Shown here: positions 735 through 52,496 of the stretch, one piece after another
Position numbering within the stretch: position 1 is the stretch's first letter
Layout: every line of letters starts with the position of its first letter
Assembly (NCBI RefSeq): GCF_044324875.1
Contig: NZ_CP172185.1
Direction: 5' to 3' (one strand)
Length of the DNA: 64,000 nt
From: Escherichia coli
GTDB lineage: Bacteria; Pseudomonadota; Gammaproteobacteria; Enterobacterales; Enterobacteriaceae
Notes under the pieces: model-generated
Seen by the model: the letters and a program-made list of their open reading frames with translations, nothing else
Told to the model about the DNA's origin: nothing
The model's database searches: none
Made by a program: the position numbers and the translations under genes

Positions 735-1796
735 ATGCTCGAAATGTTGATGCAATGGTATCGCCGCCGTTTTAGCGACCCGGAAGCGATTGCCTTGCTG
801 GTTATTTTAGTTGCCGGATTTGGCATTATCTTTTTCTTTAGTGGCCTGCTTGCTCCGCTGTTGGTGGCTATTGTGCTGGCCTATTTGCTGGAATGGCCAA
901 CCGTGCGCCTGCAATCTATTGGCTGCTCCCGCCGCTGGGCGACGTCGATTGTATTGGTGGTTTTCGTCGGTATATTGCTACTGATGGCGTTCGTGGTACT
1001 GCCTATCGCCTGGCAGCAGGGCATCTACTTAATCCGCGATATGCCGGGGATGCTCAATAAGCTTTCTGACTTTGCCGCCACGTTGCCGCGCCGCTATCCG
1101 GCGTTAATGGATGCGGGCATTATTGATGCAATGGCCGAAAATATGCGCAGTCGGATGCTGACCATGGGCGATTCGGTGGTGAAAATTTCCCTCGCCTCGC
1201 TGGTCGGTTTGCTGACCATAGCCGTCTATCTGGTGCTGGTGCCATTGATGGTCTTCTTCCTGCTGAAAGACAAAGAGCAGATGCTGAACGCCGTTCGTCG
1301 GGTGCTACCGCGTAACCGCGGACTGGCAGGACAGGTGTGGAAGGAGATGAATCAACAAATCACCAACTATATCCGCGGCAAAGTGCTGGAGATGATCGTG
1401 GTGGGGATCGCCACCTGGCTGGGATTCTTACTCTTCGGGCTGAACTATTCGCTGCTGCTGGCTGTGCTGGTCGGCTTCTCGGTACTTATTCCGTACATTG
1501 GCGCATTTGTGGTGACCATTCCGGTGGTTGGCGTGGCGCTATTCCAGTTTGGTGCTGGCACGGAATTCTGGAGCTGCTTCGCGGTGTATCTGATCATTCA
1601 GGCGCTGGACGGCAACCTGTTAGTACCTGTGTTGTTCTCCGAAGCGGTTAACCTGCATCCGCTGGTCATTATTTTATCAGTAGTGATCTTCGGTGGTTTG
1701 TGGGGATTCTGGGGCGTATTCTTCGCCATTCCATTGGCGACGCTGATCAAAGCCGTGATTCACGCCTGGCCCGATGGGCAAATCGTGCAAGAATAA
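735..1796 (+). CDS. perM: AI-2E family inner membrane permease PerM (YfgO)
   Basis: 353 aa ORF, hydrophobic multi-helix protein, ATG start, matches known PerM length and sequence. Confidence 0.93.
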   Translation: MLEMLMQWYRRRFSDPEAIALLVILVAGFGIIFFFSGLLAPLLVAIVLAYLLEWPTVRLQSIGCSRRWATSIVLVVFVGILLLMAFVVLPIAWQQGIYLIRDMPGMLNKLSDFAATLPRRYPALMDAGIIDAMAENMRSRMLTMGDSVVKISLASLVGLLTIAVYLVLVPLMVFFLLKDKEQMLNAVRRVLPRNRGLAGQVWKEMNQQITNYIRGKVLEMIVVGIATWLGFLLFGLNYSLLLAVLVGFSVLIPYIGAFVVTIPVVGVALFQFGAGTEFWSCFAVYLIIQALDGNLLVPVLFSEAVNLHPLVIILSVVIFGGLWGFWGVFFAIPLATLIKAVIHAWPDGQIVQE

Positions 1797-1800
1797 TCTT

Positions 1801-1834
1801 CAGCCCGACGAACTGTTTCGCCGGGCTGATTTTT
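1801..1834 (+). terminator. Rho-independent terminator after perM (shared 3' region with convergent focB)
   Basis: 12-bp stem cagcccgacgaa/ttcgccgggctg (one mismatch), 4-nt loop, followed by T-run. Confidence 0.6.
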
Positions 1835-2681
1835 AGGGTTCCTGACGTAAATAAATAGCCCGATAACAAATACTCACCAGCACTGCACCGCCGATAATAT
1901 TACCCAGCATCACCGGGAGCAGATTGGCGGTAATAAAATGGCTGACCGTCAGTGCCGGAAAATGGTCTGCGCTACTGTGCGCCAGTTGCCAGAAGGTGGT
2001 AGGGGCGAAATGGCGAATGGCAATGGCGAACGGAATCACAAACAAATTGGCGATACAGTGCTCAAAACCACTGGCGACAAACAGGGTGATGGGCAAAATC
2101 ATGGCGACGATTTTGTCGCATAACGAACGTCCGCAATAACTCATCCACAGCGCCAGACAAACCATCAGATTGCACATAATGCCGAGGCTGACTGATTCAG
2201 TAAATGTATGATGCATTTTGCCCTCGGCGCAGTGTAAAACCGCGACTCCCCACATCGCGTTTTCACTCATCACCAGCCCGGAAAACCAGGTTAACAAACT
2301 GAAACAGGCAATACCTGCCAGATTACCGCAGGCCACCAGAAGTGCATTAATCAGCCAAGTTCGCCAACTAATAACGCCCCGACTTTTTGCCATTACCGTC
2401 ATTACCGACGAGGTGAACAGGTTGGTGCCGCAAACCGCCAGCAAAATAAAGCCAAGTGTAAAGCAAAGGCCGCCCACCAGATGGGTTAATGCCTGTGAAG
2501 ACGGGGCATCGGCGATAACGGAAAGGTAAAAAGTAAATCCGATCGCCATAAACATGCCAGCGGACATCGCCATTAAAAAGACCGACACTTTACTGCGGGC
2601 AATTTTATGGGCGGCAATCCGTTCAGCGATTGCCGCTTTTCTGGCGCTCAACTGCAAGTCGAAAGAGAGTTTGTTTCTCAT
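1833..2681 (-). CDS. focB: Formate channel FocB (formate/nitrite transporter family)
   Basis: 282 aa membrane ORF immediately downstream of hyfR on the same strand; matches known FocB. Confidence 0.93.
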   Translation of the reverse strand: MRNKLSFDLQLSARKAAIAERIAAHKIARSKVSVFLMAMSAGMFMAIGFTFYLSVIADAPSSQALTHLVGGLCFTLGFILLAVCGTNLFTSSVMTVMAKSRGVISWRTWLINALLVACGNLAGIACFSLLTWFSGLVMSENAMWGVAVLHCAEGKMHHTFTESVSLGIMCNLMVCLALWMSYCGRSLCDKIVAMILPITLFVASGFEHCIANLFVIPFAIAIRHFAPTTFWQLAHSSADHFPALTVSHFITANLLPVMLGNIIGGAVLVSICYRAIYLRQEP

Positions 2682-2702: not shown

Positions 2703-4715
2703 TTACAACACCTCGCGAACCGAGATCCCCAGCCGCTGCATTCGTGACAGCAGCGTGGTGCGCTTCATCCCTAATCGCGTCGCCGCGCCACGGGGCCCGG
2801 CAACAATGCCATTGGTTTCTCGCAATACCTGAACAATGCGCTGACGTTCTTCTTCGTCATTCTCTGGCGTCGTCGGGTGCAGCAATTGCGCCATTGAACT
2901 GCGAAGCGCTGAATCTTCATTTAGCGTCGGCAGTAAACGGCTTTGTCGGACATTAAGATGTAAATTCAGACTGTTACCGCGAGTCAGTAGTACCGCTCGC
3001 TCAATCACGTTTTCCAGCTCGCGCACGTTGCCCGGCCAGTCCCACGACATCAACTGGCGTAGCGCCTCGGTCGGGATGGCGTCAATTGCGCGATTCATAT
3101 GGCGCGCCATTTTTTGCGTGAAATGCTTTGCTAAAAGAGGGATATCTTCCGGACGGTCGCGCAGCGGCGGCAATTCCAGTGGGAAGACATTCAGGCGATA
3201 AAAGAGATCGCTGCGAAACTGGCGATCTTCAACCATTTGCCACAAATCACGGTTGGTGGCGGCAATGACTCTGACATTTACCGGGATCGTTCTACTCCCG
3301 CCGAGACGCTCAATCTCCCGTTCCTGCAATACGCGCAGCAGTTTAGGCTGAAGTTCTAACGGCAGATCGCCAATTTCATCGAGAAACAACGTGCCGCCAT
3401 CGGCAATTTCAAAACGACCACGATGGGTATTAATCGCACCAGTAAACGCCCCTTTGTCATGACCGAATAACTCACTTTCCAGAAGACTGGCGGGGATGGC
3501 AGCGCAGTTGATTTTGACCAGTGGCTTGTCGCGTCGTGGGCTAAGTTGATGGATCGCTCTGGCGATCACCTCTTTGCCGGTTCCGGTTTCACCACAAATC
3601 AACACCGTACTGTCGCTCTTCGCCACAATATCTACCTGCTGGAGCAAATCTTCCATTGCCTGGCTTTGATAGATAATGTCACCGACGCCCAGATTCGAAA
3701 GGAGCTGCTCGCTAAGCTGGTGGTTTTCTTGCTGCAAGCTTTCCTGCAAATCGGTCATGCTGCGCCAGGCATCGGCATTGCCAACGGCAATAGCGATGCG
3801 ATCGGCAATATGTTGTAGTAGCTGGCAGTTTTCCTCACTAAAGAGAGTGGAAGAGGTATGCGCCAGCAACAATGCGCCCGGTGTATGGTTGCCAAAGGTG
3901 AGCGGTATAAGGAGCGCAGATTCGCAGCCGTTAGATGCAAGTAAGTGTAATAACGGGTCGCGTTGCCAGAGAAACAGATCGTCTGCACGGTGCGTCAAGG
4001 TCGGTTGTCGGGTTTGTAGCGTTTGTGTCAGCAATACACTTTCGCCAGGCATACAGCGTGGCAGACACGCACAATGTGAGGCAGAAAGATCGCTGCACCA
4101 CAGGCTGAACTTCTCGTTCTTTCGATGATCGCCCAGTACCATACTGACTGAAGCCAGACCGAAAAAATGATGGATCTCACGAGCGACGTCAGCGATCAGA
4201 TCGTCGAGATCAAGATGTGACAGCACTGCATTAGTGATATCCACCAGTACCCGATGATGATCGCGATCTTTCTCCAGCAAACGCAGCGCCACCTGTTGTT
4301 CTTCATCATTGAGCCATGATTGCAGAACCGGGGTGATAATGCGTGCCAGCCAGTTAAACAGTGTGCAATCCTGGGGAGTAAAACGCCTGCCGTGGGTACG
4401 AATAAAGCGTAGCTCCGCCATTCCACTACTGCCGAGAAGGACGGCGTGACGCGAATAATCGACCATCTCGCCCTGATACTCTGTTGTTGCCGTCACATCG
4501 CTGCCATCATCATGGTAGCGGTAATAGAAGTTGCTTTTGAGAACATGCAGTTCAATAAGTTGTACCGGGCTGAACGGCGGCGGCAGCGGGATGAAGGCGC
4601 GTAATAAAGACGCCTTGCCGTGTTTCTGCGCTAACCGCTCCGCGAGCATTCCGTTTACCGCTTCAATTGTTATTCCTTGCGGCGGGGCAAACATCGCCTC
4701 GTCTGACATAGCCAT
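2703..4715 (-). CDS. hyfR: Sigma-54-dependent transcriptional activator of the hyf operon (FhlA-like)
   Basis: Contains GETGTGKE Walker A and GAFTGA sigma-54 contact motif, C-terminal HTH; ATG at 4715 gives 670 aa (track ORF begins one codon earlier at a TTG). Confidence 0.93.
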
Positions 4716-4744: not shown

Positions 4745-5158
4745 TCACGCAATTTTTCTGGCCATCAGATAGATGGCCGGTTCCTGCACAATTTCATCCA
4801 ACAGATGAATGAATTGAATGCTACGCGCCTGCCACGCCGACGTCGCGTCATCTGCCAGTGGCGCGAATGCCCGGGTCAACAGGGCGGTGTGGCTGGCGTC
4901 AATAACAATCTCACCAAAAGTCATCACCCCCAGCATCTTACGTCGGGCTTGCTCCTCTTCGACCAGTGCAAGCCAATCTTCGTATTCCGTCAGTGGGCAG
5001 CGGAAGGCGACATTCAGACAATCAATCACGCCAACGTGATGGCCGATAGCCAACGAGTAATACATTACCTGGGAGCTGTGTTCCGGCATCTCGTCGCTAC
5101 TGGCGATAAATTTTTTTCGCAGCGTCCAGAAAACAATTTCCCTGCACTCCTCAGCCAT
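4745..5158 (-). CDS. hyfJ: Hydrogenase-4 maturation/assembly protein (HycH-like)
   Basis: 137 aa ORF, last gene of hyf structural cluster before hyfR. Confidence 0.9.
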
Positions 5159-5909
5159 GTAACCCCCGGAGAACGCGAAAGAGTTGCTGAACGATACTAT
5201 TGAGACGCGGATCGTCGGCTTCGCGCAACCAGGTGTTAACCCGATTTCCTGTGGGATCGTCGCTTAAATGGCGCAGGAGTCGATCGCAAATTTCTCGCCC
5301 TTGACGATAGCCCGCCAGCCGCCTCGCTTCTCGCTCAATGGCGATACGCTGTGATGGCGGGATCTGCGGCCACAGCGGTTGCATGGTCACCCCGGTGGGA
5401 TCGCGATAATCCACCGCGTGAATCTTCTGTTGCAGCAAACCGAGCGCCACGGCGAAACCGTGAATGGTGGCGGCCGGTGTTGGCGGGCAGCCGGGGATCC
5501 AAACATCAATGGGGACAATGGTGTCGCTGCCGCCCCAGACGCTGTAGAGATCGTGGAAAATACCGCCGCCGACACCGCACGCGCCGTAGGAAACACAGAT
5601 TTTATGATCGGGGGCAGACTCATACGCCCGAAGTGCAGGCATACGCATCGCCCGGGTGACTGCGCCAGTAAATAACAAAATATCGGCGTGACGCGGTGAT
5701 GAAACAACCTTAATGCCAAAACGTTCTGCGTCGAATACTGGTGTGATGGCGGCAAAAATTTCGATTTCGCAGGCGTTGCAGCCGCCGCAATCGACGCGAT
5801 AAACGTAGGCCGAGCGACGGATATCCTGTAACAAATGCTGCTTCATCTTTTGCGTTTGCTCGTCCAGCGTGATGGGCTGGCTGACATGTTGCGTAAGCAC
5901 TGGACTCAT
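5151..5909 (-). CDS. hyfI: Hydrogenase-4 small subunit (NuoB-like, Fe-S)
   Basis: 252 aa ORF with conserved cysteine ligands (CGGCN, GCPP); overlaps hyfJ start by 8 nt. Confidence 0.93.
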
Positions 5910-6451
5910 AGCTGCTCCTTAGCCACCAGCGGTTCATCTGTGTCGTCGTTGATCAGCGTCGCGCGTTGTTTGCATTCCGGGCAGACGCTCGCTTGCGCCC
6001 GTAACATTTCGCGGTTTTGTGGCGCATTTTGTTGCTGTGCCAACAGTTCTGCAGCCAGTACGACGGTTTTTTGCGGGGCAAACGGGCGTTCGCAACGGCT
6101 GCAACGTTGTAGATGGAACGTCGCGCGGGTATAGAGATCGGCTTTATTGGTGACGGTCAGTTCAAAGTTATTGGTAAGCTGAATGGCTCTGGTCGGGCAC
6201 ACTTCTTCACAACGTCCGCAGTAAATACAACGCCCCAGATAGAGCTGCCAGGTGCGCGTATTTTGCTGGTCGTCGGTCTGGATAGTCAGCGCATTTGCCG
6301 GACAAGCACAGGCGCAGGCACCGCAGGCAATACATTGGCTGGGCATCAGGTCCGGTTTCCCGCGAAAGCCTGGGCTGACTTCCAGTGGTGCGAAGGGATA
6401 TTTCACCGTCGCGGTTCCGGCGCGCATAATAGTTTTCAGTAACTTCAGCAT
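5906..6451 (-). CDS. hyfH: Hydrogenase-4 ferredoxin-like subunit (2x 4Fe-4S)
   Basis: 181 aa; two CxxCxxCxxxCP motifs ([24 protein letters not shown]). Confidence 0.93.
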
Positions 6452-6460
6452 CTTCTGTCC

Positions 6461-8176
6461 TTACTTCAGCGGCGAACGGTTACGATCAATGCCGTAGCGT
6501 TCGATCTCTTTATACGGCACGGTTTTTGACTGGCGCTTGCGCACATCAACCAGCGTCACACGGTCGGTACAGGAGTAGCAGGGATCAAGGCTACCGATAA
6601 TCAGCGGTGCGTCAGAAACGGTATTGCCGCGCAGCATGTAACGCAGCACTGGCCAGTTGGCGTAGGTGGCGGCACGACAGCGCCAGCGGAACAATTTTTG
6701 GTTATCACCGAGCATGCTCCAGTGCACGTCTTCACCACGTGGCGCTTCAACAAAGCCCAGCGCGAATGCGTGAGGTTTATAGCTAAAGCCTTCGGTCAGC
6801 AGTGGGGTATCTGGCATGTTGTCGAGGGCAAATTCCAGCATTGCCAGCGAATCAAACGTCTCTTTGACACGGACCATCACGCGGGAGAAGACATCGCCGC
6901 CGGTAAAGGTAAACAGCGTTTTGGGAATATTGCCGTAGTCGGCGTAGGGGTGATCAAAGCGCAAATCACGGGCAAAACCACTGCCGCGGATCAGCGGCCC
7001 TACGGGGCTATAATCACGGGCGATTTGTCGGTCGAGAATGCCAATGCCCTGAGTGCGTTGTTCCATATTCGGCGTGGCAAGCAGCATCTCTACCAGCTCC
7101 GACACGTCAGCGCGCATCTCGCGCACTAGTTTCAGCGTTTGCAGACGTTGCTCTTTGAGAATATCGCGGCGAACACCACCAATCAGATTCAGACCGTAGG
7201 TTTTACGCGACCCGGTCAGCAATTCCGCCATCGTCATCGACTTTTCCCGCACGCGGAAAAATTGCATAAAGCCGGTATCAAATCCAACAAAATGGCAGGA
7301 GAGGCCAAGGTTGAGCAAATGACTATGCAGCCGTTCGACTTCCAGCAGAATCGAGCGAATAGTATGCGCTCGTTGCGGCACCTCAATCCCCAGTGCATTT
7401 TCAACCGAGTTGGTATAGGCCACACTGTGGGCAAAACCGCAAATCCCACACACGCGGTCGGATAAGAAGGTCACTTCGTTGTAGCCCATCCGCGTTTCTG
7501 CCAGTTTCTCCATGCCGCGATGGACATAAAACAGGCGGTAATCAGCATCGACAATTTGCTCGCCATCCACAAACAAGCGGAAGTGACCTGGTTCATCGGA
7601 GGTGATATGCAGCGGGCCGACAGGGATAACCCGCGCATCGCTGTTGCCCTCGTTGATAAACGGATACGTTTCGGTATCAGTCGTCGGTTCTGGGCGCAGT
7701 CGATAATCCATCGCGTCTTTGCGCAGCGGATGCATATCTTCCGGCCAGTCATCGGGCAACACCAGCCGACGCTGATCCGGCAGGCCAACCGGAATCAGCC
7801 CGTACATATCGCGAATTTCTCGCTCGCCCCAGACCGCGGCAGGGACGCGCGGTGTGACTGACGGAAACTCCCGACTGTCGGCATCGACCAGTGCCTTCAC
7901 CACGATCCAGCATTTTTCGGCCCCTTCCATAGAAAGGGCATAATAAACCGCGTAATGACCGTTAAGTGTCCGCTCGTCGTTGCCAAACAGGACTGGAAGC
8001 CAGCCATCATGTTGATAATAAAGATAATGCACAACGTCAGGCAGCAGATTGATTTTCACCGTAATGGTGACCTGTTCAGGCGTTTGTCGCTCTTCATCCA
8101 GCACCGCGCCGGGGAACTGCGTTTTCAGGGCGGCGAGAATCGCTTCGCCACGATTTGACGATGAATTAACGTTCAC
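6461..8176 (-). CDS. hyfG: Hydrogenase-4 [NiFe] large catalytic subunit
   Basis: N-terminal [11 protein letters not shown] and C-terminal DPCYSCTDR nickel-ligand motifs; chosen start is GTG at 8176 (MNVNSSS...) preceded by GGAG SD; the track ORF extends to an ATG at 8221 that lacks an SD. Confidence 0.88.
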
Positions 8177-9746
8177 TGTGTTTCTCCGAAACAGATGCGG
8201 TGCCTGAAGGCAAAAAATCATGCCAGGTGCTACGTTGTGCAGGCAGGTCGTGCGTCCCTGAGAGGACTATAGTGGAAGCGCCCGCCAGGATCCTGATGAC
8301 AGGTTGTGGAATATGCGTTCCCATCGCCAGCATCATGACCAGCAGAATCACCATTGGCGAGGTGGTCAACCAGCCAAGTTCACCCCGGTTAACGGCCTGC
8401 GGCGGTTTCGCCATTAACACCCGCGCAGCCATCCGTACCAGGCCCGCCAGCACCAGCGTTAACAGAAATAACAGCAGGACGATAAGCAGCAGATGATTAC
8501 GCGCCAGTCCGGCGGTAACGGTCATAAATTCGCTAAGAAAAATGTTGAAGGGCGGCATCCCGGCCAGCGCCAGCGCACCGCCGCCAAACAACACGGCGGT
8601 AAATGGCATGATTTTGAGCATCCCACAGACGACGTTGAGATCGCGCGTGCCGTACTTGAGCAGTACATTGCCGGAACCGCAGAACAACAGCGTTTTTGCC
8701 AGACTGTGGTTTAAGGTGTGCAGCAGCGCGGCAAAAATTCCCAGCGGCCCGCCAATGCCTAACGCCACCGCGACCAGTCCCATGTTCTCCACGCTGGAGT
8801 ACGCCAGCAGACGCTTAATGTCCCGCTGTACCAGAATGAAAAATGCCGCCACGGCAACCGACAACATGCCGAAGATGAGCAACAACCGGTTGGGGAAATC
8901 GCTGCCGATGGCCTGGCAAATAATGATGTAATAGCGAATCAGCACCAACAGCGCGCAGTTCAGCAATACGGCGGAGAGCAGGGCGCTGACCGGACTCGGC
9001 GCTTCACTGTGAGCATCTGGCAGCCAGGCGTGCATGGGGAATAGCCCGGTTTTAGTGCCAAAGCCAATTAGCACGAACACAAAGGCCAACAGCATTAATG
9101 TTGGGTCAAGCAAGGACGATTGCTTAAGAACCTCGCTCCAGAATATCGCCATTTCTGCCTGCGGCATAACGCTGGCGGCGTTGGCGTATACCAGCACGGT
9201 ACCGAACAGACCAAAAGCGACACCAACAGTACAAATAATGATGTACTTCCATGCAGCTTCCAGCGATGAACGCTGACCGTAAATGCCTACCAGAAACGCC
9301 GAGCTTAAGGTGGTGGCTTCGATCGCCGCCCACATCACAATAAGGTTATTGCTGGTGACAACCAGCAGCATGGTGAACAAAAACAGATGGAAGAAACCGT
9401 AGTAATCGCACAGCGTAACGGGTGAAAGCTCGCCGTGTGCCACTTCATGACGCATGTAGCCAATCGAGTAAACACCGGTGAGAAAGCCAATCACACCAAG
9501 AATGGCGAGGAACAAACCGCCCAGACCATCAATGTGAAGCCACAGTCCCGCAGCGAATATTTCTCCCGCATCAGCGGCAGTTTGGACCACCCACAGTGCC
9601 AGAATCAGCAGCAGTGTGATCCCTAAGCCATGTAGTACTGTCACCGTGCGAGTCGCAGAGTGTCCCCGTTTCCGGCAGGCAAAACAGAGCAGCGAAAAAA
9701 GCAGCGGCGTGAGCAGGAGTAAAGCGAACATCACAGAATAACTCAT
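8166..9746 (-). CDS. hyfF: Hydrogenase-4 membrane subunit, complex I antiporter-like (NuoL/M/N family)
   Basis: 526 aa polytopic membrane ORF, matches HyfF. Confidence 0.93.
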
Positions 9747-9750
9747 TTCA

Positions 9751-10401
9751 TTATCCCTTCAGCGCGGTCAAGTTGTTCACGTCCAGCGTGCCGTGGGTAC
9801 GCCATATTTTTCTTGCCAGTAACACCATTACAATGACGGCGAAGATGGCGTCGGTAGCGATACCAATTTCCACCAGTTCCGGTGCACGCCAGGCTAGAAG
9901 CGCCAGCACCAGATGGGAGCCGTTTTCCATCAGGCAGTAACCAAAAATTTGCCGCAGGATATTGCGCTGGCTGACAATGCACAGCAGGCCAAGCAGAAAA
10001 TGACCTAACGCCACCGCCAGCGCCGGTTTCAGCCCGGTAGCCATCGGTAGCTTCACGGGCTGAACGACAAATGCGCAAAGCAGGACAATTAACGCCGCGA
10101 GCAGTGTCATCATTGCCGGACCGAATAACGCTTTTTCCGGGATGTTCTGGGGAATATTTCGTGCAGCGTAAGTCATGATTAACGGTACCAGCAGCACTTT
10201 GGTGATAAAGGCGCTGGCGGACCAGATCAGCAGTTGCTCTGCGGCGAACAGGCACGAGAGGGTGGCGAAAATAGACACCAGCACCAGCGACTGGCAGGCG
10301 TAAAATCCGCATGACAGGCGATAGCTTTTGACGCTAATCACAAACAGCGATGTCAGCATCATCAGTCCCGCCAGATTATTTACGATCATAGAACCGGTCA
10401 T
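9751..10401 (-). CDS. hyfE: Hydrogenase-4 membrane subunit
   Basis: 216 aa hydrophobic ORF in conserved position. Confidence 0.9.
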
Positions 10402-10412
10402 TCATCATCTCC

Positions 10413-11852
10413 TTACTGCAACCAGGTCGCGGCGATTACGCTGGAAATCAGCGACATCACAATCAGTACAATCAACACCAGGCGCATTGATCCTGGCAGC
10501 GGTGCGGCATCGGCGACGGCCTCGCTCGGTTTGCCAGGCACGACGCGACCAAACCAGCGAATAAACCAGGCGAAACTGGCGACCGATTCAATCATCAGCA
10601 GAATTATGGCGGGCAGCAGGATCCAGTACTCCACTGACAACGCAAAACCGGCGGCAAACAGCGGGAATTTACTGAAGAAGCCGTTGAACGGCGGTACGCC
10701 GGTAATCGCCAGCGCTGCCACGCAGAACCCCACGCCTGGCAACGGCAGGGTGTGCAATACGCCACGCAGACGCGGCAACAGGCGCGTGCCGCAGCTGTAA
10801 CTCAGCGCACCTGCTACAAGGAAAAACAGGCTTTTAGCGAACGCGTGGTTGACGATGTAGGCGATGCTGCCCTCCAGTGCCAGCCGCGAGCCGAAGATGG
10901 AGAGCGACAAGCCGAAGAACATCCAGCCAAGTTGAGTGATGGTCGACCAGGCCAGCAACCGCTTCATATCCTGCTGTGGCAAATACATCAGGAAGCCATA
11001 AAGAATGGTGACCAGTGCCATGACCATGCCAACGCCGCCAATCACATGCGGGATATTGCCGCCGTCGATAATGGCGCGGGCAAAAATGTAAACGCCCACT
11101 TTCACCATCGATGCGGCGTGGAGATAGGCGCTGATCGGTGTTGGCGCTTCCATTGCATCCGGTAGCCACGCTTGCATCGGTAGCTGGGCCGATTTCCCCC
11201 ACGCGGCAAACAGGATGCCGCCATAAACCAGATAACGTGCGTCGCCGTGTAACTCGCTCATCGCGCTGAGCGCAAACGTTCCGGTCTGCAAAAACAGCGT
11301 GGCGGCGGCAAGATACAACCCCAGCGAACCGATATGAGTGATAAGCAACGCTTTTAGTGCTGAACGCTGCGCTTTATCGCTCTGGTAATAACTGATCAAC
11401 GCCCAGGAGCAGCCGCCCGTAATTTCAAAAAACAACAACTGACCGAGCAGCGTCGAGGAGAGTACCAGTCCCGCCATCGCGCCGATAAAAACCAGCAAAA
11501 ATGCGTAATAACGATTCGTGCCGTTATGCGGGTGTTCGCGATTTTTATCCGTCAGATAACCCGTGGAGTAGATCGTGACCAGCAAACCGAGGAACACCAC
11601 CACAAACAGAATCAGCGTACTCACGCGATCAATGACCAGGCCAAACAACGCCACATCCCCTACGTTGACCAACGTCAACGTGACGGCAACTTTATCGGCC
11701 TGATAAAACGCGGAGATCAGCGACAACATGCACAGCGTGGTCAGCGCGGCGAACAAAACCCCCCATTCGGCGGCCCGACGTTGTGGCGAAAACGAAACGA
11801 CCAGTGCGCCGATAAAAGGCAGCAATAACGTCGTCAGAGCAAGATTTTCCAT
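10413..11852 (-). CDS. hyfD: Hydrogenase-4 membrane subunit, antiporter-like (NuoM/N family)
   Basis: 479 aa polytopic ORF, matches HyfD. Confidence 0.93.
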   Translation of the reverse strand: MENLALTTLLLPFIGALVVSFSPQRRAAEWGVLFAALTTLCMLSLISAFYQADKVAVTLTLVNVGDVALFGLVIDRVSTLILFVVVFLGLLVTIYSTGYLTDKNREHPHNGTNRYYAFLLVFIGAMAGLVLSSTLLGQLLFFEITGGCSWALISYYQSDKAQRSALKALLITHIGSLGLYLAAATLFLQTGTFALSAMSELHGDARYLVYGGILFAAWGKSAQLPMQAWLPDAMEAPTPISAYLHAASMVKVGVYIFARAIIDGGNIPHVIGGVGMVMALVTILYGFLMYLPQQDMKRLLAWSTITQLGWMFFGLSLSIFGSRLALEGSIAYIVNHAFAKSLFFLVAGALSYSCGTRLLPRLRGVLHTLPLPGVGFCVAALAITGVPPFNGFFSKFPLFAAGFALSVEYWILLPAIILLMIESVASFAWFIRWFGRVVPGKPSEAVADAAPLPGSMRLVLIVLIVMSLISSVIAATWLQ

Positions 11853-11868: not shown

Positions 11869-12816
11869 TTACAGACCGGTTAACCAGAAGACCCATGCAA
11901 GCGCAGCAAGGCTGAAGCCAAGCCAGGTCACATGGTGAATGAGTAAAAAACGCCCGCGTGCCAGCGTGTTTTCTGCGATTGAGGCCAGTACAAAAATCAG
12001 CAAAACCTTGAGCAGCGTAACGACAAGAGAAGTCAGCAGGCAGGCGAGAGAAAGTTCTTGCGCGCGCCCAAAGGGCAGAAACAGGGCCACAAACAGTGAT
12101 GCCATCACGACCTGTTTCAGCCCCAGCCCGCATTTCGCCAGCGCCAGCCCGGCACCGGAATATTCGGTCAGCGGGCCTTCCTGTAATTCCTGTTCTGCTT
12201 CAGCAACATCAAAGGGAATTTTTCCCATCTCAATGAAGCAGGCAAAACCACAGGCCAGTAACGCCAGTACGGTGGTTAGCGGCGAGCTCCAGCGCGTTGC
12301 CAGCGTATTGCTGATCATCTCGATATGCGTGGAACCCGCTATCAGCGCCAATACCAGCAGTGAGAGAATGAGCATGGGTTCGACCAGAATGCCGAGCGTC
12401 AACTCGCGACTGGCACCGACTCCCGCAAAGGGGCTTCCGGTATCCAGCCCGGAAAGAGCAAAGAAAAAACGAAACAGGGCAAGAAGATAGATAAGGGTGA
12501 TCAGATCGCCGCCGCCCGCAAAAGGGGAAACAGTAATAAATAGTGGTAGAGCCATCGCCAGCACCAGCATGCTGCTGATTAATACCCACGGCATCAGGCG
12601 GAACATCAGACCTGAAGATGTCGGCGCAACTTCCTGGCGTTTAAACAGTTTGTGGATATCGCGATAATCCTGCCAGATCCCCGGTCCGCGACGGGAGTGC
12701 ATTCGCGCGCGTATCTGCCGGGAAATCCCCGTAAAAAGCGGGGTTAGCGCCAGCAGAATCACGGCCTGTGCTAACGCAAAAATGATCAGATATCCGTCGC
12801 AAAGAGTTTGTCTCAT
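11869..12816 (-). CDS. hyfC: Hydrogenase-4 membrane subunit (NuoH/HycD-like)
   Basis: ATG at 12816 (MRQTLCDGYL..., 315 aa) preceded by AAGGAA SD; track ORF is extended 7 codons upstream. Confidence 0.9.
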   Translation of the reverse strand: MRQTLCDGYLIIFALAQAVILLALTPLFTGISRQIRARMHSRRGPGIWQDYRDIHKLFKRQEVAPTSSGLMFRLMPWVLISSMLVLAMALPLFITVSPFAGGGDLITLIYLLALFRFFFALSGLDTGSPFAGVGASRELTLGILVEPMLILSLLVLALIAGSTHIEMISNTLATRWSSPLTTVLALLACGFACFIEMGKIPFDVAEAEQELQEGPLTEYSGAGLALAKCGLGLKQVVMASLFVALFLPFGRAQELSLACLLTSLVVTLLKVLLIFVLASIAENTLARGRFLLIHHVTWLGFSLAALAWVFWLTGL

Positions 12817-12826
12817 GGTGATTTCC

Positions 12827-14845
12827 TTAGACGGCAATAGCGATTAGCAGCACAACCAGTGCGGCGACCACATACAGGCAATAGAGACGAAAGTCGCCGC
12901 TTTGCAGATGCTGTATTTCTTTGGCCAGCCGTTGGGTGGCGCTCACGATGGGGCGGATCACCCGCTCATCCCAGAAGGGTTCTGTGCTCTGAGCCCTGGC
13001 GGTGACATGCGCAAGACCTTTGTTCAGCCTCAGCGTAGGGTCGAGCTGTTGTCGTAGACGAAATAGCGCACAAAAGACCACACGCAGCGGTTGCATCACG
13101 CCATTGCCTGACGGGGCCATCGCATTATCCCAGCCGTAGCCGCATGCCCAGGCATCTCCTGTGCGACGAAACGCTGCGCGGCGCGAACGACACCACAGCC
13201 AGTAAAGGCCAGGCAGCAAAGGCATCGCCAGTAGTAACAGCAACAGTAATGAGGGAGTGACCCGTGTATGAAACGTGCCTGGTACAAGTGCTATTCCGCT
13301 GGCGACAGTGACGGGAGGGGTATTGGTAAACGCATGGGCAATGTGCATTATCTTCGGTGCCAGCCAACTGGCACTAAGCGCAATGAATACGCAGAGTGCC
13401 GCGAGCAGTAGCATGGCGACGATCATCGTATTCGGCACTTCCTGTGCCTCTTCAGCGTGTGTACTGCGCGGCGCTCCACAGAAAGTAATACCGTACATTT
13501 TGACGAAGCACATTACTGCCAGCCCACCAGTGACTGCCAGCATCACCATAGCAATAGGACCCGCAAGTTGTAGCGCTACGGCTTCCACACGACTTAGTGA
13601 GAACAGCGACTGCCAGGTGTACCATTCGCTGATAAAACCATTCAGCGGAGGAATAGCAGATATCGCGAGGCAACCAATCAGGCATGCTGCGGCTGTCCAC
13701 GGCATACGTTTCGCCAGTGCCCCCATTTTTTCCATGTCGTGGGTATGCAAACGCGAAATAATCGCACCCGCGCCGAGAAACAGCAGCCCTTTGAACAGCG
13801 CATGGTTGAGCAGATGAAACAGTGCGCCGAGCAGTCCAACCACGGTGAGCAGCGGGTCGTGCAGTGACAGACCGACCATCGCCACACCGACTGCCAGCAA
13901 AATAATGCCGACGTTTTCGACGGTACTCCAGGCCAGCAGCCGTTTGATATCCTGTTCCGCCAGCGCATACAGCACGCCCAGGAGCGCGGAGATTGCGCCG
14001 ATCGCCATCACCAGAATGCCCCACCACAGCGGCAAACCCGTTTGCGCCAGCAGGTCCATCGCTACTTTCAGGATGCCGAAAATACCGATTTTGACCATTA
14101 CGCCAGACATCAACGCCGAAGCGTGCGATGGTGCGGCAGGGTGAGCGCGTGGCAACCAGCTGTGCAACGGCATCATCCCGGCTTTCGCGCCAAAACCGAA
14201 GAAGGCCAGCAGGAACACCGCCGACGCCAGCCCCGGAGAAAGTGAAAGCGTGCGGAAACTGACAAAATCGAGGCTGCCGCTTTCGCGCCACATCAGCAAG
14301 AAGGCGATCATAATCAGCACCGATCCGGCGTGGGCGATAAAAAAGTAGAGCATGCCAGCGTTGATTGACGTTTTATCCTGCCTGGCAATGACCAGAAACC
14401 AGGAAGACAGCGACATCATTTCAAACAGCACGATGAACCAAAAAGCGTTGTCCATCACCAGCAGGGCAACCATCGATGCGATGAAAAGATTCATAAAGAA
14501 GCCCATCGCCGCCGCGCCTTTGCCCTCGTATTCGCGCATATAAGTCAATGAATAGAGAGAACAAACCACCACCAGCAAGGAGATAACCAGCACCATAAAT
14601 GCCGAGAGGCTATCCATTCGCAGGGTTAAATCGGCAAAGTCAAAAGGCGTGGCAAAACGGGCGACTAAAGTTACGCCTGCATGTAATTGCGTAATTCCGC
14701 TGATGATGCCAATCACGCCACCCACCAGCGATGTGATGCCGGAAAGCTTAATAGCCAGTCTGTCCAGACCGAGTAAAAACAGCGAAGCCAGACTGGCAAA
14801 CAGATAGAGGATCAGCGACCAGGTTAATAATTGCAGGGCATCCAT
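12827..14845 (-). CDS. hyfB: Hydrogenase-4 membrane subunit, antiporter-like (NuoL family)
   Basis: 672 aa polytopic ORF; start overlaps hyfA stop (TAATG). Confidence 0.93.
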   Translation of the reverse strand: MDALQLLTWSLILYLFASLASLFLLGLDRLAIKLSGITSLVGGVIGIISGITQLHAGVTLVARFATPFDFADLTLRMDSLSAFMVLVISLLVVVCSLYSLTYMREYEGKGAAAMGFFMNLFIASMVALLVMDNAFWFIVLFEMMSLSSWFLVIARQDKTSINAGMLYFFIAHAGSVLIMIAFLLMWRESGSLDFVSFRTLSLSPGLASAVFLLAFFGFGAKAGMMPLHSWLPRAHPAAPSHASALMSGVMVKIGIFGILKVAMDLLAQTGLPLWWGILVMAIGAISALLGVLYALAEQDIKRLLAWSTVENVGIILLAVGVAMVGLSLHDPLLTVVGLLGALFHLLNHALFKGLLFLGAGAIISRLHTHDMEKMGALAKRMPWTAAACLIGCLAISAIPPLNGFISEWYTWQSLFSLSRVEAVALQLAGPIAMVMLAVTGGLAVMCFVKMYGITFCGAPRSTHAEEAQEVPNTMIVAMLLLAALCVFIALSASWLAPKIMHIAHAFTNTPPVTVASGIALVPGTFHTRVTPSLLLLLLLAMPLLPGLYWLWCRSRRAAFRRTGDAWACGYGWDNAMAPSGNGVMQPLRVVFCALFRLRQQLDPTLRLNKGLAHVTARAQSTEPFWDERVIRPIVSATQRLAKEIQHLQSGDFRLYCLYVVAALVVLLIAIAV

Positions 14846-15462
14846 TAGCGTTGCTCCTGAGTGAGGGAAAGGGGATCCTCCCCGCCATTGGCAAACCAGC
14901 TTGCGGCAAGGCGCTGTTTTTCTTTCATCTGACGTTGCAGGCTATCGCCGGTGATCAGCCGTAACGCCTGATTCGGGCAAGCGCGAACGCAGGCCGGACC
15001 TTCTGGCAAGAAATCACACAGGTCGCATTTCACCGCGACGGTCTGGACACCCGGTTCCCAGCGCAGCAAAGCATGTTGGGTTGGCGCGTTTTCTTCGCCG
15101 TCTTTGAGTGAGCCCTCAGCCTGAAAAACATATTGCGCAGGGGCATTCACCGGACGGCTTCCTGAAGCGCTGATTGCGCCAAATGGGCAGACCACGGCAC
15201 AAAGCTTGCAGCCAATACAGAGGCTTTCGTTGAGTTGGATCGCATCATCCCTCTGGGAGATGGCATTGACCGGGCAGACCTGCAGGCAAGGGGCTTCCTC
15301 ACAGTGATGACACACGACAGGGGCAGTGAGTGTTGACGTCTTCGCCAGGGCCAGGCGCGGGTGTTGCTGTAAACCTTGCGTTTTATGCACGTCCGAACAG
15401 GCAGCGAGACAGGTATTACATCCTGTACACCACAGTGGTTCGGCCACCACAAAGCGGTTCAT
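14845..15462 (-). CDS. hyfA: Hydrogenase-4 ferredoxin-type electron transfer subunit (4x Fe-S cluster motifs)
   Basis: ATG at 15462 (MNRFVVAEPLWCTGCNTC..., 205 aa) with AGGAG SD; four Cys-cluster motifs; track ORF is extended 13 codons. Confidence 0.92.
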   Translation of the reverse strand: MNRFVVAEPLWCTGCNTCLAACSDVHKTQGLQQHPRLALAKTSTLTAPVVCHHCEEAPCLQVCPVNAISQRDDAIQLNESLCIGCKLCAVVCPFGAISASGSRPVNAPAQYVFQAEGSLKDGEENAPTQHALLRWEPGVQTVAVKCDLCDFLPEGPACVRACPNQALRLITGDSLQRQMKEKQRLAASWFANGGEDPLSLTQEQR

Positions 15463-15503
15463 GTCGGCTCCTTGAAAATGATATGAAACATTGCATTTCA
15501 TAT

Positions 15504-15520
15504 TGCATAAAGGATGCCAG
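15504..15520 (-). promoter_or_regulatory. Candidate sigma-54 (-24/-12) promoter of the hyf operon
   Basis: Minus strand reads cTGGCATcctttaTGCA (GG-N10-GC spacing of the sigma-54 consensus TGGCAC-N5-TTGCA), about 40 nt upstream of hyfA ATG; the operon ends with the sigma-54 activator hyfR. Confidence 0.55.
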
Positions 15521-15714
15521 TCTGATTAATTTAATATATTCAATAAGTTATGTGTTAACTGGATTCTGAACGGTACAAAAATGATGGTCATTAACGTTCA
15601 GCAAAAAATGAATTCGACACCCGTGTCGCAGGGGAAAGCGAGAATGTGATCTTGATCACGAGAAGTGAGGTGTGCTGACCGCAAGCGCAGCCAGCACGGA
15701 ATGGAGCAAAGTAA

Positions 15715-16185
15715 TCAGGCGTGTTCTTTCAGCCAGTTCAGCACAACGTCGTGGTGATTGCTGGTTTTGAAATCGTCAAAGACATGTTCGATTTTGCCAT
15801 CAGCGTCAATCAGGAAGCTGATGCGATGAATACCATCGTAGGTTTTGCCCATGAAGGACTTTTCACCCCAGACGCCGAATTGTTCGCACACCTGGTGGTC
15901 CTCATCAGACAGGAGCGTAAAGTTAAGCAGCTCTTTTTCCGCAAAACGGGAGAGTTTTTCGGGTTTATCGGTGCTGATACCCAGCACATCAACGCCCGCT
16001 TTTTTCAACTCATCCATGTTATCGCGTAAGCCGCAGGCCTGTACGGTACAGCCGGGGGTCATGGCTTTCGGGTAGAAATAAACCAGAACACGCTGTCCCT
16101 GGAAGTCGGTCAAATTAACTTGTTCTCCGTCTTGATCCGGCAAGCTAAATTTCGGTGCGATATCACCGGCTTTCAGTGGATTCAT
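15715..16185 (-). CDS. bcp: Thiol peroxidase / peroxiredoxin Bcp
   Basis: 156 aa; peroxidatic Cys motif KAMTPGCTVQACG. Confidence 0.95.
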   Translation of the reverse strand: MNPLKAGDIAPKFSLPDQDGEQVNLTDFQGQRVLVYFYPKAMTPGCTVQACGLRDNMDELKKAGVDVLGISTDKPEKLSRFAEKELLNFTLLSDEDHQVCEQFGVWGEKSFMGKTYDGIHRISFLIDADGKIEHVFDDFKTSNHHDVVLNWLKEHA

Positions 16186-51128: not shown

Positions 51129-52496
51129 ATGAAACTAAAGACCACATTGTTCGGCAATGTATATCAGTTTAAGGATGTAAAAGAGGTGCTGGCTAAAGCC
51201 AACGAACTGCGTTCGGGGGATGTGCTGGCGGGCGTCGCAGCGGCAAGCTCACAGGAGCGCGTGGCGGCAAAGCAGGTGTTGTCGGAAATGACCGTAGCGG
51301 ACATCCGCAATAATCCGGTGATTGCTTATGAAGATGACTGCGTGACGCGGCTGATTCAGGACGACGTTAACGAAACGGCCTACAACCAGATTAAAAACTG
51401 GAGCATCAGCGAACTGCGTGAATACGTCCTGAGCGACGAAACCAGCGTTGACGACATTGCCTTTACCCGCAAAGGGTTGACCTCGGAAGTGGTCGCGGCG
51501 GTAGCGAAGATTTGCTCCAACGCGGACCTGATCTACGGCGCGAAGAAAATGCCGGTGATCAAAAAGGCCAATACCACCATCGGTATTCCGGGCACCTTCA
51601 GCGCCCGCTTGCAGCCAAACGACACCCGTGACGACGTGCAAAGTATCGCCGCGCAAATCTACGAAGGGCTTTCTTTCGGGGTGGGCGATGCGGTGATCGG
51701 CGTTAACCCGGTGACTGACGACGTGGAAAACTTAAGCCGCGTGTTGGACACCATCTATGGCGTGATCGACAAATACAACATTCCGACCCAGGGCTGCGTG
51801 CTGGCGCACGTCACCACCCAGATTGAAGCAATTCGTCGCGGCGCGCCTGGCGGACTGATTTTCCAGAGTATCTGCGGCAGCGAAAAAGGGCTGAAAGAGT
51901 TTGGCGTGGAACTGGCGATGCTCGACGAAGCGCGCGCAGTGGGCGCGGAGTTCAACCGTATCGCCGGGGAAAACTGCCTCTACTTCGAAACCGGACAAGG
52001 CTCTGCGCTATCCGCTGGCGCTAACTTCGGCGCAGACCAGGTGACGATGGAAGCGCGTAACTACGGGCTGGCGCGTCATTACGATCCGTTTATCGTCAAC
52101 ACCGTGGTCGGCTTTATTGGGCCGGAGTATCTCTACAACGACCGCCAGATTATCCGTGCGGGCTTAGAAGATCACTTTATGGGCAAGCTGAGCGGCATCT
52201 CTATGGGCTGTGACTGCTGCTACACCAACCACGCTGACGCTGACGCTGACCAGAACCTCAACGAAAACCTCATGATCCTGCTCGCCACCGCAGGCTGCAA
52301 CTACATCATGGGGATGCCGCTGGGCGATGACATCATGCTCAACTATCAGACCACCGCATTCCACGACACTGCCACTGTGCGTCAGTTACTCAACCTGCGC
52401 CCGTCACCGGAGTTTGAACGCTGGCTGGAAAGCATGGGCATTATGGCAAACGGTCGCCTGACCAAACGGGCGGGCGATCCGTCACTGTTCTTCTGA
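51129..52496 (+). CDS. eutB: Ethanolamine ammonia-lyase large (heavy) subunit
   Basis: 455 aa from ATG 51129 (MKLKTTLFGNVYQFKDVKEV...); contains in-frame (GCTGAC)3 repeat encoding ADADAD. Confidence 0.95.
   Translation: MKLKTTLFGNVYQFKDVKEVLAKANELRSGDVLAGVAAASSQERVAAKQVLSEMTVADIRNNPVIAYEDDCVTRLIQDDVNETAYNQIKNWSISELREYVLSDETSVDDIAFTRKGLTSEVVAAVAKICSNADLIYGAKKMPVIKKANTTIGIPGTFSARLQPNDTRDDVQSIAAQIYEGLSFGVGDAVIGVNPVTDDVENLSRVLDTIYGVIDKYNIPTQGCVLAHVTTQIEAIRRGAPGGLIFQSICGSEKGLKEFGVELAMLDEARAVGAEFNRIAGENCLYFETGQGSALSAGANFGADQVTMEARNYGLARHYDPFIVNTVVGFIGPEYLYNDRQIIRAGLEDHFMGKLSGISMGCDCCYTNHADADADQNLNENLMILLATAGCNYIMGMPLGDDIMLNYQTTAFHDTATVRQLLNLRPSPEFERWLESMGIMANGRLTKRAGDPSLFF

Follow-up and report, generated by a model that had tools for sequence, protein, structure and literature searches.

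PhyfA, the promoter of the hyf operon of Escherichia coli, is already known as a catalogued and well-characterised sigma-54 promoter. In strain K-12 the orthologous −24/−12 element is site OS23 of the sigma-54 ChIP-seq map, where it is located 31 nt from hyfA and carries the flag "C" for experimental confirmation in EcoCyc (PMC4591121). The bcp/hyfA spacer was also the strongest RpoN-holoenzyme peak in gSELEX, at 92% and 100% of the highest peak (PMC8743547). Skibinski et al. (2002, J Bacteriol 184:6642) appear to have addressed the mapping of the start site and the dependence of hyf on rpoN and hyfR, in a paper whose title ascribes the regulation of hyf to FhlA and HyfR, with FhlA named first.

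The FhlA-dependent promoters of fdhF, hydN-hypF, hycA, and hypA each possess, like hyf, a −24/−12 element and an upstream pair of CGWCA/TGWCG pentamers, and the activator of this regulon is from the same family as HyfR. The K-12 upstream regions of fdhF (CGTCAAAACTGACG) and hydN (CGTCACTAGTGTCG) contain palindromes of the CGWCA-N4-TGWCG class, as does that of hyf. The palindrome begins approximately 109 bp upstream of TGGCA at hyf, compared with approximately 85 bp at fdhF and 75 bp at hydN. A single clear palindrome is found at hyf, whereas the hyc-hyp region has several pentamer copies. The hyf locus further differs from the FhlA-dependent promoters in having a second, dedicated activator encoded in cis and a CRP-type site.

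Functional studies of formate hydrogenlyase-2 (FHL-2) have been conducted in Pectobacterium and Trabulsiella. These two genera encode the protease HyfK, which is missing from the hyf cluster of E. coli (PMC7654741), and focB is specific to E. coli relative to Trabulsiella. In the hyf loci of Citrobacter, Klebsiella indica, Phytobacter, and Brenneria, homologues of HyfA, HyfF, and HyfG are found in the same order. These loci agree with E. coli in the cores of the promoter and in the enhancer palindrome, but the CRP-type site is not universal. The clusters of Citrobacter and Phytobacter occupy the same locus as in E. coli, after bcp.

The DNA analyzed here, referred to as the window, is a stretch of 64,000 nucleotides from an E. 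coli chromosome that carries the hyf cluster on the minus strand. The interval from 15463 to 15714 is exactly the 252-bp spacer between bcp and hyfA. It is bounded at one end by the stop codon of bcp (16185–15715, minus strand) and at the other by the ATG of hyfA at 15462. A 421-bp query covering window positions 15380–15800 was 100% identical to an annotated genome. We assign a probability of approximately 0.93 to the conclusion that this interval is PhyfA, the sigma-54 (RpoN)-dependent promoter and control region of hyfABCDEFGHIJ-hyfR-focB.

The 12 genes of the cluster are found in this order between bcp and yfgO. All of the following are on the minus strand. HyfA (14845–15462, 205 aa) is a 4Fe-4S ferredoxin-type subunit, and HyfH (5906–6451, 181 aa) is also of the ferredoxin type. 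Three antiporter-like membrane subunits match Proton_antipo_M: HyfB (12827–14845, 672 aa, E = 3e-54), HyfD (10413–11852, 479 aa, E = 1e-53), and HyfF (8166–9746, 526 aa, E = 9e-56). HyfC (11869–12816, 315 aa) is NuoH-like (NADHdh, E = 5e-58), HyfE (9751–10401, 216 aa) has a NuoK-like C-terminus (Oxidored_q2), and HyfI (5151–5909, 252 aa) is the NuoB-like small subunit (Oxidored_q6). The [NiFe] large subunit HyfG (6461–8176, 571 aa) is encoded by a full-length allele and matches Complex1_30kDa, Complex1_49kDa, and NiFeSe_Hases as the NuoCD-like subunit. HyfJ (4745–5158, 137 aa) is a maturation protein of the HycH family (HycH, E = 1e-56). HyfR (2703–4715, 670 aa) is a sigma-54 enhancer-binding protein with GAF, Sigma54_activat, and AAA_lid_14 domains above the cut-offs, and FocB (1833–2681, 282 aa) is a channel of the formate/nitrite transporter family (Form_Nir_trans, E = 7e-64). 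The cluster is the hydrogenase-4/FHL-2 operon of E. coli, which encodes a group 4a [NiFe]-hydrogenase. None of the 12 open reading frames is interrupted, they are 96.7–99.8% identical to those of K-12, and the K-12 length is kept in 11 of them, the exception being HyfG (571 aa versus 555 in K-12). The first-pass annotation of the window, made from the sequence alone, had described this operon with hyfR and focB downstream, three complex-I antiporter-like subunits (HyfB, HyfD, and HyfF), and intact genes throughout, and the open reading frames and Pfam matches bear out each of these statements.

The same annotation had placed a −24/−12 element about 40 nt upstream of hyfA, and this was confirmed. 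The element, cTGGCAT-CCTTT-ATGCA (cTGGCATCCTTTATGCA, 15520–15504, minus strand), is identified by its motif, its conservation, and the binding literature for K-12. The core sequence TGGCATCCTTTATGCA is found on the hyf coding strand at 15519–15504, with its last base 41 nt before the hyfA ATG. The GG (15518–15517) and GC (15506–15505) dinucleotides are both intact and are one helical turn apart. Relative to TGGCAC-N5-TTGCA, the element has 2 mismatches over the 11 specified positions. It is intergenic and faces hyfA from close by, in the same orientation. The predicted transcription start, taken as the center of the motif plus 19 bp by the rule of PMC4591121, falls at 15492–15493, 12 nt downstream of the −12 GC, and would give a leader of 30–31 nt; the rule yields 31 nt to hyfA, as in Table 1 of that paper. 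The Shine-Dalgarno sequence of hyfA, AAGGAG (15468–15473, minus strand), was read from the sequence 5 nt before the ATG, and seven of the eight aligned sequences keep AAGGAGCC. A search of the spacer against Rfam gave no match near any threshold, and an RNA element in the spacer was dropped from consideration.

The motif alone is no better than chance in the window. Sequences within two mismatches of the TGGCAC-N5-TTGCA consensus occur 29 times against 30.6 expected, and with the Barrios RpoN matrix the PhyfA element reaches 12.4 out of a maximum of 20.9, which puts it only sixth; statistical support from the motif by itself was rejected on these grounds. For the exact pattern, a single occurrence compares with 0.09 expected, but this test is circular. 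Since five equal or better matrix matches are located inside genes of the same window, the sigma-54 assignment cannot rest on the motif alone. If the matrix scan counts only the 252 positions in front of hyfA and in its orientation, simple arithmetic gives approximately 0.012 expected matches of this strength. The real evidence for PhyfA is its position, its invariance in an alignment of eight sequences that span five enterobacterial genera (one each from Escherichia, Klebsiella indica, Phytobacter, and Brenneria and four from Citrobacter), and the literature. The TGGCA and TGC cores are invariant in all eight sequences, whereas the spacer between the cores varies. The cluster also encodes a predicted cognate enhancer-binding protein, HyfR, and the predicted enhancer, approximately 128 bp upstream, is within the range of about 80–200 bp expected for a sigma-54 promoter.

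The PhyfA region of K-12 MG1655 (the b2480/b2481 spacer) is identical to the window at 245 of 252 positions. It has the same TGGCAT-N5-ATGCA element, CRP-type palindrome, CGACA-N4-TGTCG palindrome, Shine-Dalgarno sequence, and spacing. The K-12 element, ATGGCATCCTTTATGCA, is identical to that of the window except at −26, where the window has C for the A of K-12 and is thereby closer to the YTGGCAC consensus. A 40-mer probe for the −26 variant was uninformative on allele frequency, with megablast requiring an exact word of 28 nt. The seven substitutions include one at the edge of the bcp-end hairpin, three in the A/T-rich tract, and the one at −26, and one is located just 3′ of the palindrome (GAATTC versus GAATCC).

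The enhancer candidate, or upstream activating sequence (UAS), is the palindrome gCGACA-CGGG-TGTCGa at 15614–15629, centered at approximately −128.5 from the predicted start, and we propose it as a site for HyfR or FhlA. Within it, CGACACGGGTGTCG at 15628–15615 forms a CGWCA/TGWCG pentamer pair 4 bp apart upstream of the sigma-54 promoter, the arrangement of an FhlA-type UAS. The positions CGACA..TG.CGA are invariant in all eight aligned sequences. Two copies of the pattern CGWCA-N4-TGWCG are present in the 64 kb, where 0.25 would be expected; the second copy (51620–51633), which is inside eutB, was dismissed as a chance occurrence. In one hyf-less genome the leftover palindrome has decayed to CAACAC-TCG-TTTCAA. 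A terminator call on this palindrome was rejected, since its conservation is that of a DNA site and its position is upstream of the promoter.

Two further boxes are found between this palindrome and the promoter. The conserved box TGACCATCATTTTTG (15576–15590, minus strand) is centered at approximately −90, contains TGACCATCAYTTTTG, which is kept in 7 of 8 aligned sequences, and overlaps a weak FhlA-matrix match, GAACGTTAATGACC, with a score of 5.5–5.7. This box could serve as another half-site for the activator or belong to a bending site. An IHF-like site, TAACTTATTGAAT (15538–15550, minus strand), which reads as the consensus WATCAANNNNTTR on the opposite strand, is centered at approximately −51 in the A/T-rich tract. 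It fits 8 of the 9 specified positions in E. coli and in C. amalonaticus, and all 9 in Klebsiella indica and the other three Citrobacter sequences. The consensus is degenerate.

On the bcp side, the CRP-type palindrome cGTGA-TCAAGA-TCACA (15645–15660) is centered at approximately −159.5 and is a candidate site for cAMP-CRP. In E. coli it fits 9 of the 10 core positions of TGTGA-N6-TCACA. It was not found in the aligned hyf upstream regions of Klebsiella indica, Phytobacter, and Brenneria, and it is absent from the scar of the hyf-less genome. Its core also fits matrices of the FNR and FhlA types, and PMC3688515 mentions a predicted FNR site at hyfA that is silent. RNA folding showed a hairpin with an 11-bp stem immediately downstream of the bcp stop codon (15672–15697, minus strand; −20.2 kcal/mol, z = −4.7, 0 of 200 shuffles as stable). 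There is no U-tract after the stem, and the hairpin is retained in the one hyf-less genome that was examined. It is probably a terminator or 3′ stabiliser of bcp and not part of hyf control. Alignment across the genera maps the control region more clearly than does the motif by itself, and picks out a palindrome of the FhlA class, IHF-like and CRP-type sites, and a further conserved box.

In the scheme that we infer, the assignment of proteins to boxes, the use of IHF and of CRP, and the sensing of formate by HyfR are all putative. Sigma-54 RNA polymerase would bind to the −24/−12 element (15519–15504) as a closed complex, and an AAA+ activator of the FhlA family, either HyfR, the paralogous formate sensor FhlA, or both, would bind to CGACA-N4-TGTCG approximately 128 bp upstream. 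Bending at the IHF-like site at approximately −51 would bring the activator and the polymerase together, and ATP hydrolysis would then open the promoter, with transcription starting near 15493, 30–31 nt before hyfA. Probably, cAMP-CRP would contribute an additional input through the CRP-type palindrome at approximately −160.

The most serious alternative accepts the promoter but gives the physiological role of activator to FhlA, which senses formate for the hyc/hyp/fdhF regulon, and not to HyfR, which would matter only when it is artificially over-expressed. We give this proposal somewhat less than even odds. HyfR shares 51% identity with FhlA across residues 104–664 and contains the GAFTGA motif. 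Its HTH_8 match is weak, at 21.1 bits just under the 22-bit cut-off, but 27 of 33 residues of the C-terminal helix-turn-helix segment are identical to those of FhlA, which would explain an enhancer common to the two proteins. The conserved enhancer is of the same class as those of the FhlA-dependent fdhF and hydN promoters. HyfR has no similarity to roughly the first 100–135 residues of FhlA, and formate sensing by HyfR is therefore not implied by homology. A scan for a sigma-70 promoter of hyfR identified none. Inactivation of the chromosomal hyfR gene reportedly had no effect on hyfA-lacZ, and a transcript spanning hyfJ and hyfR is said to have escaped detection. The order of names in the title of the published regulation study points in the same direction, and both hyc and hyf are activated by FhlA according to PMC7658346. 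Against this proposal, hyfR is located downstream of hyfA, together with the palindrome, in 6 of the 7 foreign loci that include the hyfA region; among the loci compared, it was not found downstream of hyf in Brenneria. Purified HyfR, moreover, reportedly binds the hyf promoter region. In Pectobacterium, deletion of hyfR nearly abolishes FHL-2 activity (PMC7384014). The description of hyf in the first-pass annotation as having "its own activator" is thus half of the account: HyfR is a sigma-54 activator encoded in the cluster, but FhlA is named as well in the published title, and the enhancer is of the FhlA type.

It is improbable that the HyfR/FhlA enhancer is instead the CRP-type palindrome at 15660–15645. 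A published FhlA matrix of 14 columns and 13 sites ranks this palindrome as the best match in the spacer (10.0 or 9.6 in two scans), a score of 10.0 being reached by 35 of 127,974 window positions, and a distance of approximately −160 would be acceptable. The conserved palindrome at 15629–15614 scores only about 5 with the same matrix. The CRP-type palindrome, however, is conserved only in Escherichia and Citrobacter, its counterpart in all four Citrobacter upstream regions is a perfect TGTGA-N6-TCACA, and the two positions at which it departs from the FhlA matrix are the symmetric C/G specificity positions that distinguish TGWC/GWCA. The palindrome at 15629–15614 is the one that is invariant and that fits the fdhF and hydN motifs. 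The matrix, which favors the CRP-type palindrome and scores the conserved one low, was rejected as an enhancer detector and was replaced by direct comparison with the upstream regions of fdhF, hydN, and hyc-hyp. Because the matrix ranks the CRP-type palindrome higher, the assignment of the enhancer to 15629–15614 rests on conservation and on the comparison with fdhF and hydN.

It is very improbable that the −24/−12 match arose by accident and that transcription of hyf instead uses a sigma-70 promoter that has gone unrecognised, such as one dependent on CRP: consensus-level matches do occur at chance frequency, stronger matrix matches are found inside genes, and a CRP-type site is present, but ChIP-seq and gSELEX place the sigma-54 holoenzyme on this spacer in K-12, the cores are invariant across the five genera, a sigma-54 activator gene is linked, and a scan of 15300–15900 found no sigma-70-like promoter or hexamer pair.

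As a promoter call, PhyfA changes nothing that is known. It serves as a positive control, in that a reading made with no tools recovered a true sigma-54 promoter.

The less expected feature of the window is in the catalytic gene, where hyfG keeps 16 codons that have been lost in the laboratory strain K-12. The 48 bp at 6974–7021 (GCCCGTGATTATAGCCCCGTAGGGCCGCTGATCCGCGGCAGTGGTTTT) are in-frame and encode 16 conserved codons that are missing from K-12 hyfG. The window allele is the ancestral full-length form. The K-12 deletion is repeat-mediated and removes a core segment of 16 residues, inside the Complex1_49kDa profile, that is conserved in HycE; HyfG matches the HycE of structure 7Z0S with E = 2e-292. 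No mention of this deletion was found in the literature searched, which does not prove it to be unreported. No activity of the K-12 hydrogenase-4 has ever been demonstrated, not even when its promoter was replaced (PMC7654741), and the deletion provides a testable reason for two decades in which no hydrogenase-4 activity was detected in this strain. We suggest, tentatively and as the less probable case, that the "silent" hydrogenase-4 of E. coli may reflect a defect of the K-12-type allele and that PhyfA in full-length strains may control a working FHL-2. This by-product of the analysis could matter more than the promoter, with K-12 falling in the defective-looking class. Among complete E. coli genomes, approximately 40% have full-length hyfG, 39% have hyfG minus the 48 bp, and 21% have the cluster deleted, and the 48-bp deletion is common to approximately 49% of those that carry hyf.

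The interval 15463-15714 was found to be precisely the whole 252-bp spacer between bcp (16185..15715, minus strand) and hyfA (15462..14845), which encodes a ferredoxin-type subunit and is the first gene of the minus-strand hyf (hydrogenase-4) cluster. A 421-bp query across it (15380-15800) is 100% identical to E. coli chromosomes and has at least a partial match in 5,424 of the 5,426 complete E. coli genomes; the best-matching genome is annotated as bcp and then hyfA. On the same strand follow hyfB (14845..12827), hyfD (11852..10413), and hyfF (9746..8166), each with the Pfam domain Proton_antipo_M, together with hyfC (12816..11869; NADHdh), hyfE (10401..9751; Oxidored_q2), hyfG (8176..6461; Complex1_30kDa, Complex1_49kDa, NiFeSe_Hases), hyfH (6451..5906), hyfI (5909..5151; Oxidored_q6), hyfJ (5158..4745; HycH), hyfR (4715..2703; GAF, Sigma54_activat, and a weak HTH_8 match of 21.1 bits against a cut-off of 22), and focB (2681..1833; Form_Nir_trans). 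The gene yfgO (735..1796) is on the plus strand. These domains bear out the three antiporter-like subunits, the downstream activator, and the formate channel described in the first-pass annotation. The genes are intact, as it had stated: all 12 from hyfA to focB translate without a break and are 96.7-99.8% identical to those of K-12 MG1655, with equal lengths except for hyfG.

In the direction of hyf transcription, the spacer sequence is ...TCAGAcTGGCATCCTTTATGCAATATGAAATGCAATGTTTCATATCATTTTCAAGGAGCCGACATG. The -24/-12 element TGGCAT-N5-ATGCA is matched at 15519..15504 (minus strand), 41 nt from the hyfA ATG at 15462, where about 40 nt had been estimated. With the GC at 15506-15505 taken as -13/-12, the predicted transcription start is 15493 and the leader is 31 nt; a ribosome-binding site (AAGGAG) is found at 15473-15468 (minus strand). 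An in-frame ATG at 15499-15501, 39 nt before the annotated hyfA start, gives a mechanical open reading frame of 218 rather than 205 amino acids. It was rejected as the start of hyfA because it precedes the predicted transcription start and is without a ribosome-binding site. Scans of the hyfA control region returned no sigma-70-type promoter and no match to an Rfam family.

The -24/-12 motif alone is at chance level, and it is the context that singles the site out. With up to two mismatches allowed, the window contains 29 matches to TGGCAC-N5-TTGCA, where 30.6 are expected. An RpoN matrix of 186 promoters (as reprinted in PMC7658346) gives the hyfA site 12.4 out of a maximum of 20.9, which places it sixth in the 64 kb. 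The five higher matches, at 15195-15210 (+), 4276-4291 (-), 11016-11031 (-), 2878-2893 (-), and 15353-15368 (+), all lie within hyf genes, including hyfA (antisense, CGGCACAAAGCTTGCA), hyfR (sense, TGGCGCTGCGTTTGCT), and hyfD. The main text of the sigma-54 ChIP-seq paper names no hyf-internal site, "hyf" there being hyfA only (PMC4591121). Over the 252 co-oriented spacer positions, arithmetic from the matrix scan gives about 0.012 expected hits at the score of the hyfA site.

A HyfF scan with one genome per species located hyf loci in Klebsiella indica, four Citrobacter, Phytobacter ursingii, Brenneria, and Superficieibacter, and the hyfA upstream regions of seven scanned loci were aligned with that of the window. 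The two -24/-12 cores, TGGCA and TGC, are unchanged in all eight sequences, and the five bases between them vary (CCTTT, TGTTT, GACTT, GGAAT). Between K-12 and the window, 7 of the 252 spacer positions differ, and within the promoter only -26 does so. At this position (15520, the next base 5' of TGGCAT), the window has C and K-12 has A, the C being nearer to the YTGGCAC consensus. An identical 40-mer around the promoter is present in 673 genomes, a count that is no measure of the -26 allele frequency.

Control of hyf is the subject of a dedicated study by Skibinski et al. and a companion by Self et al. The former (2002) reportedly mapped the start by primer extension to a point 30 bases before hyfA and found expression to depend on sigma-54. 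In the same study, hyfR supplied on a plasmid reportedly raised hyf expression about 1000-fold, the purified protein bound DNA of the promoter region, and knocking out the chromosomal copy of hyfR made no difference. The start mapping and dependence test suggested in the first-pass annotation has thus already been performed, and the promoter is already known. Bonocora et al. (2015) list the K-12 element ATGGCATCCTTTATGCA as sigma-54 ChIP-seq site OS23, with a predicted start 31 bp from hyfA and the flag 'C', for experimentally confirmed in EcoCyc (PMC4591121). Shimada et al. (2021) found a bcp/hyfA spacer peak of 92% with RpoN holoenzyme alone, and with NtrC present this spacer is itself the 100% reference peak (PMC8743547). 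The observation is confirmed, and its reading as a sigma-54 promoter is supported by position, conservation, and the published K-12 sigma-54 data.

The alignment reveals four more blocks in the control region. The palindrome gCGACA-CGGG-TGTCGa (15629-15614, centred at about -128.5) was assigned as a candidate HyfR/FhlA enhancer because it is invariant, resembles other FhlA-dependent promoters, and is rare in the window. CGACA..TG.CGA is unchanged in all eight upstream regions. The FhlA-dependent promoters of K-12 were compared: upstream of fdhF lies the related motif CGTCAAAACTGACG, upstream of hydN lies CGTCACTAGTGTCG, which reads CGACACTAGTGACG on the opposite strand and in that orientation nearly equals the hyf sequence of Phytobacter, and in the hyc-hyp spacer CGACA pentamers recur several times with the same pitch. 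The window has two matches to CGWCA-N4-TGWCG, where 0.25 would be expected; the second copy, CGACACCCGTGACG at 51620-51633, lies inside eutB and was rejected as a chance near-copy. HyfR and FhlA are 51% identical overall and share 27 of 33 residues in the C-terminal helix-turn-helix segment, a near-identity that a shared enhancer would fit. HyfR has no similarity to about the first 100-135 residues of FhlA in the protein comparison, and thus formate sensing by HyfR is not implied by homology.

The second block, TGACCATCAYTTTTG (15590-15576, about -90), is kept in seven of the eight sequences. In E. coli, a 7-bp inverted repeat, CTGAACG...CGTTCAG (15595-15601 and 15566-15572), flanks the conserved TGACCATCATTTTTG box; its arms are not conserved in the other aligned genera. 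The third is an IHF-like site, TAACTTATTGAAT (15550-15538, about -51), the reverse complement of the consensus WATCAANNNNTTR, with one mismatch in E. coli and all nine specified positions matched in Klebsiella indica and three of the four Citrobacter. The fourth, cGTGA-TCAAGA-TCACA (15660-15645, about -160), is most simply a candidate CRP site, because TGTGA-N6-TCACA is perfect in 4/4 Citrobacter though missing from three other genera. It is also the best spacer hit of the published FhlA matrix, and its TGAT-N4-ATCA core may underlie the 'silent' FNR site predicted at hyfA (PMC3688515). A strong hairpin at 15697-15672 (-20.2 kcal/mol, z = -4.7, RNA fold) probably belongs to bcp.

Sequence and alignment show the elements, the degree to which they are conserved, and an activator gene linked to them; in the mechanism that we propose, a closed complex of sigma-54 RNA polymerase at -24/-12 would be remodelled by an FhlA-family hexamer, either HyfR or FhlA, at about -128, a bend at the IHF-like site near -51 would assist contact between activator and polymerase, and cAMP-CRP would provide input at about -160. 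Occupancy of the K-12 hyfA promoter by sigma-54 holoenzyme has been published (PMC4591121, PMC8743547). Bearing on a possible separate promoter for hyfR-focB, a sigma-54-like TGGCAGGCGCGTAGCA is present at 4819-4834 (minus strand) in the 3' end of hyfJ, about 100 nt before the hyfR ATG, and scans of the 29-nt hyfJ-hyfR spacer returned no sigma-70-like promoter and no operon-strand terminator.

For 1,127 of the 5,424 matching genomes, the match ends after the initial ~135-140 bases of the query, which take in the 3' end of bcp, the hairpin, and little beyond it; the entire hyf cluster is absent from about 21% of complete E. coli genomes. The one such genome examined in detail is that of strain E41-1, in which yfgO directly follows bcp. 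Its 97-bp junction still contains the enhancer region in decayed form (CCCTGCAACACTCGTTTCAAATTTTTCGCTGAA versus CCCTGCGACACGGGTGTCGAATTCATTTTTTGCTGAA in the window). The join to the end of yfgO falls at the 6-bp repeat GCTGAA, copies of which are at 15602-15597 and 1804-1799 in the window. The relic and the repeat at both cluster ends indicate that hyf was probably lost by a 13.8-kb deletion rather than never acquired, in agreement with bcp also preceding hyfA in Citrobacter and Phytobacter.

The promoter finding itself is of low interest; the point worth passing on is an allele difference in hyfG. HyfG is 571 amino acids long in the window and 555 in K-12, the difference being 16 codons (48 bp; 7021..6974, minus strand) missing from MG1655. 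The segment is edged by a 10-bp direct repeat, GCCCGTGATT, the signature of deletion by slippage or recombination. It is conserved in HycE, where its counterpart in the solved structure of FHL (7Z0S) is IARDFSNVGPMVRASGH, and it lies within the Complex1_49kDa profile, to which the K-12 allele matches at 16 fewer positions and with 41 bits less (129.6 versus 170.7). The K-12 form is the derived one, since all seven orthologues recovered from other genera are gapless across the segment. The segment is present in 2,179 of 5,426 complete E. coli genomes (2,157 by megablast) and the flanking hyfG sequence in 4,294, so about 2,115 (49% of hyf-bearing genomes) carry the deletion allele. We found no mention of this deletion in the literature searched. 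Finney et al. (2020) detected hydrogenase-4 activity in none of 15 K-12 strains built with hyc or T5 promoters and HyfG-HycE tail fusions, and inferred 'additional, unknown, biosynthetic problems' (PMC7654741). The hyfG deletion is a possible, candidate explanation for the hydrogenase-4 activity never detected in K-12.
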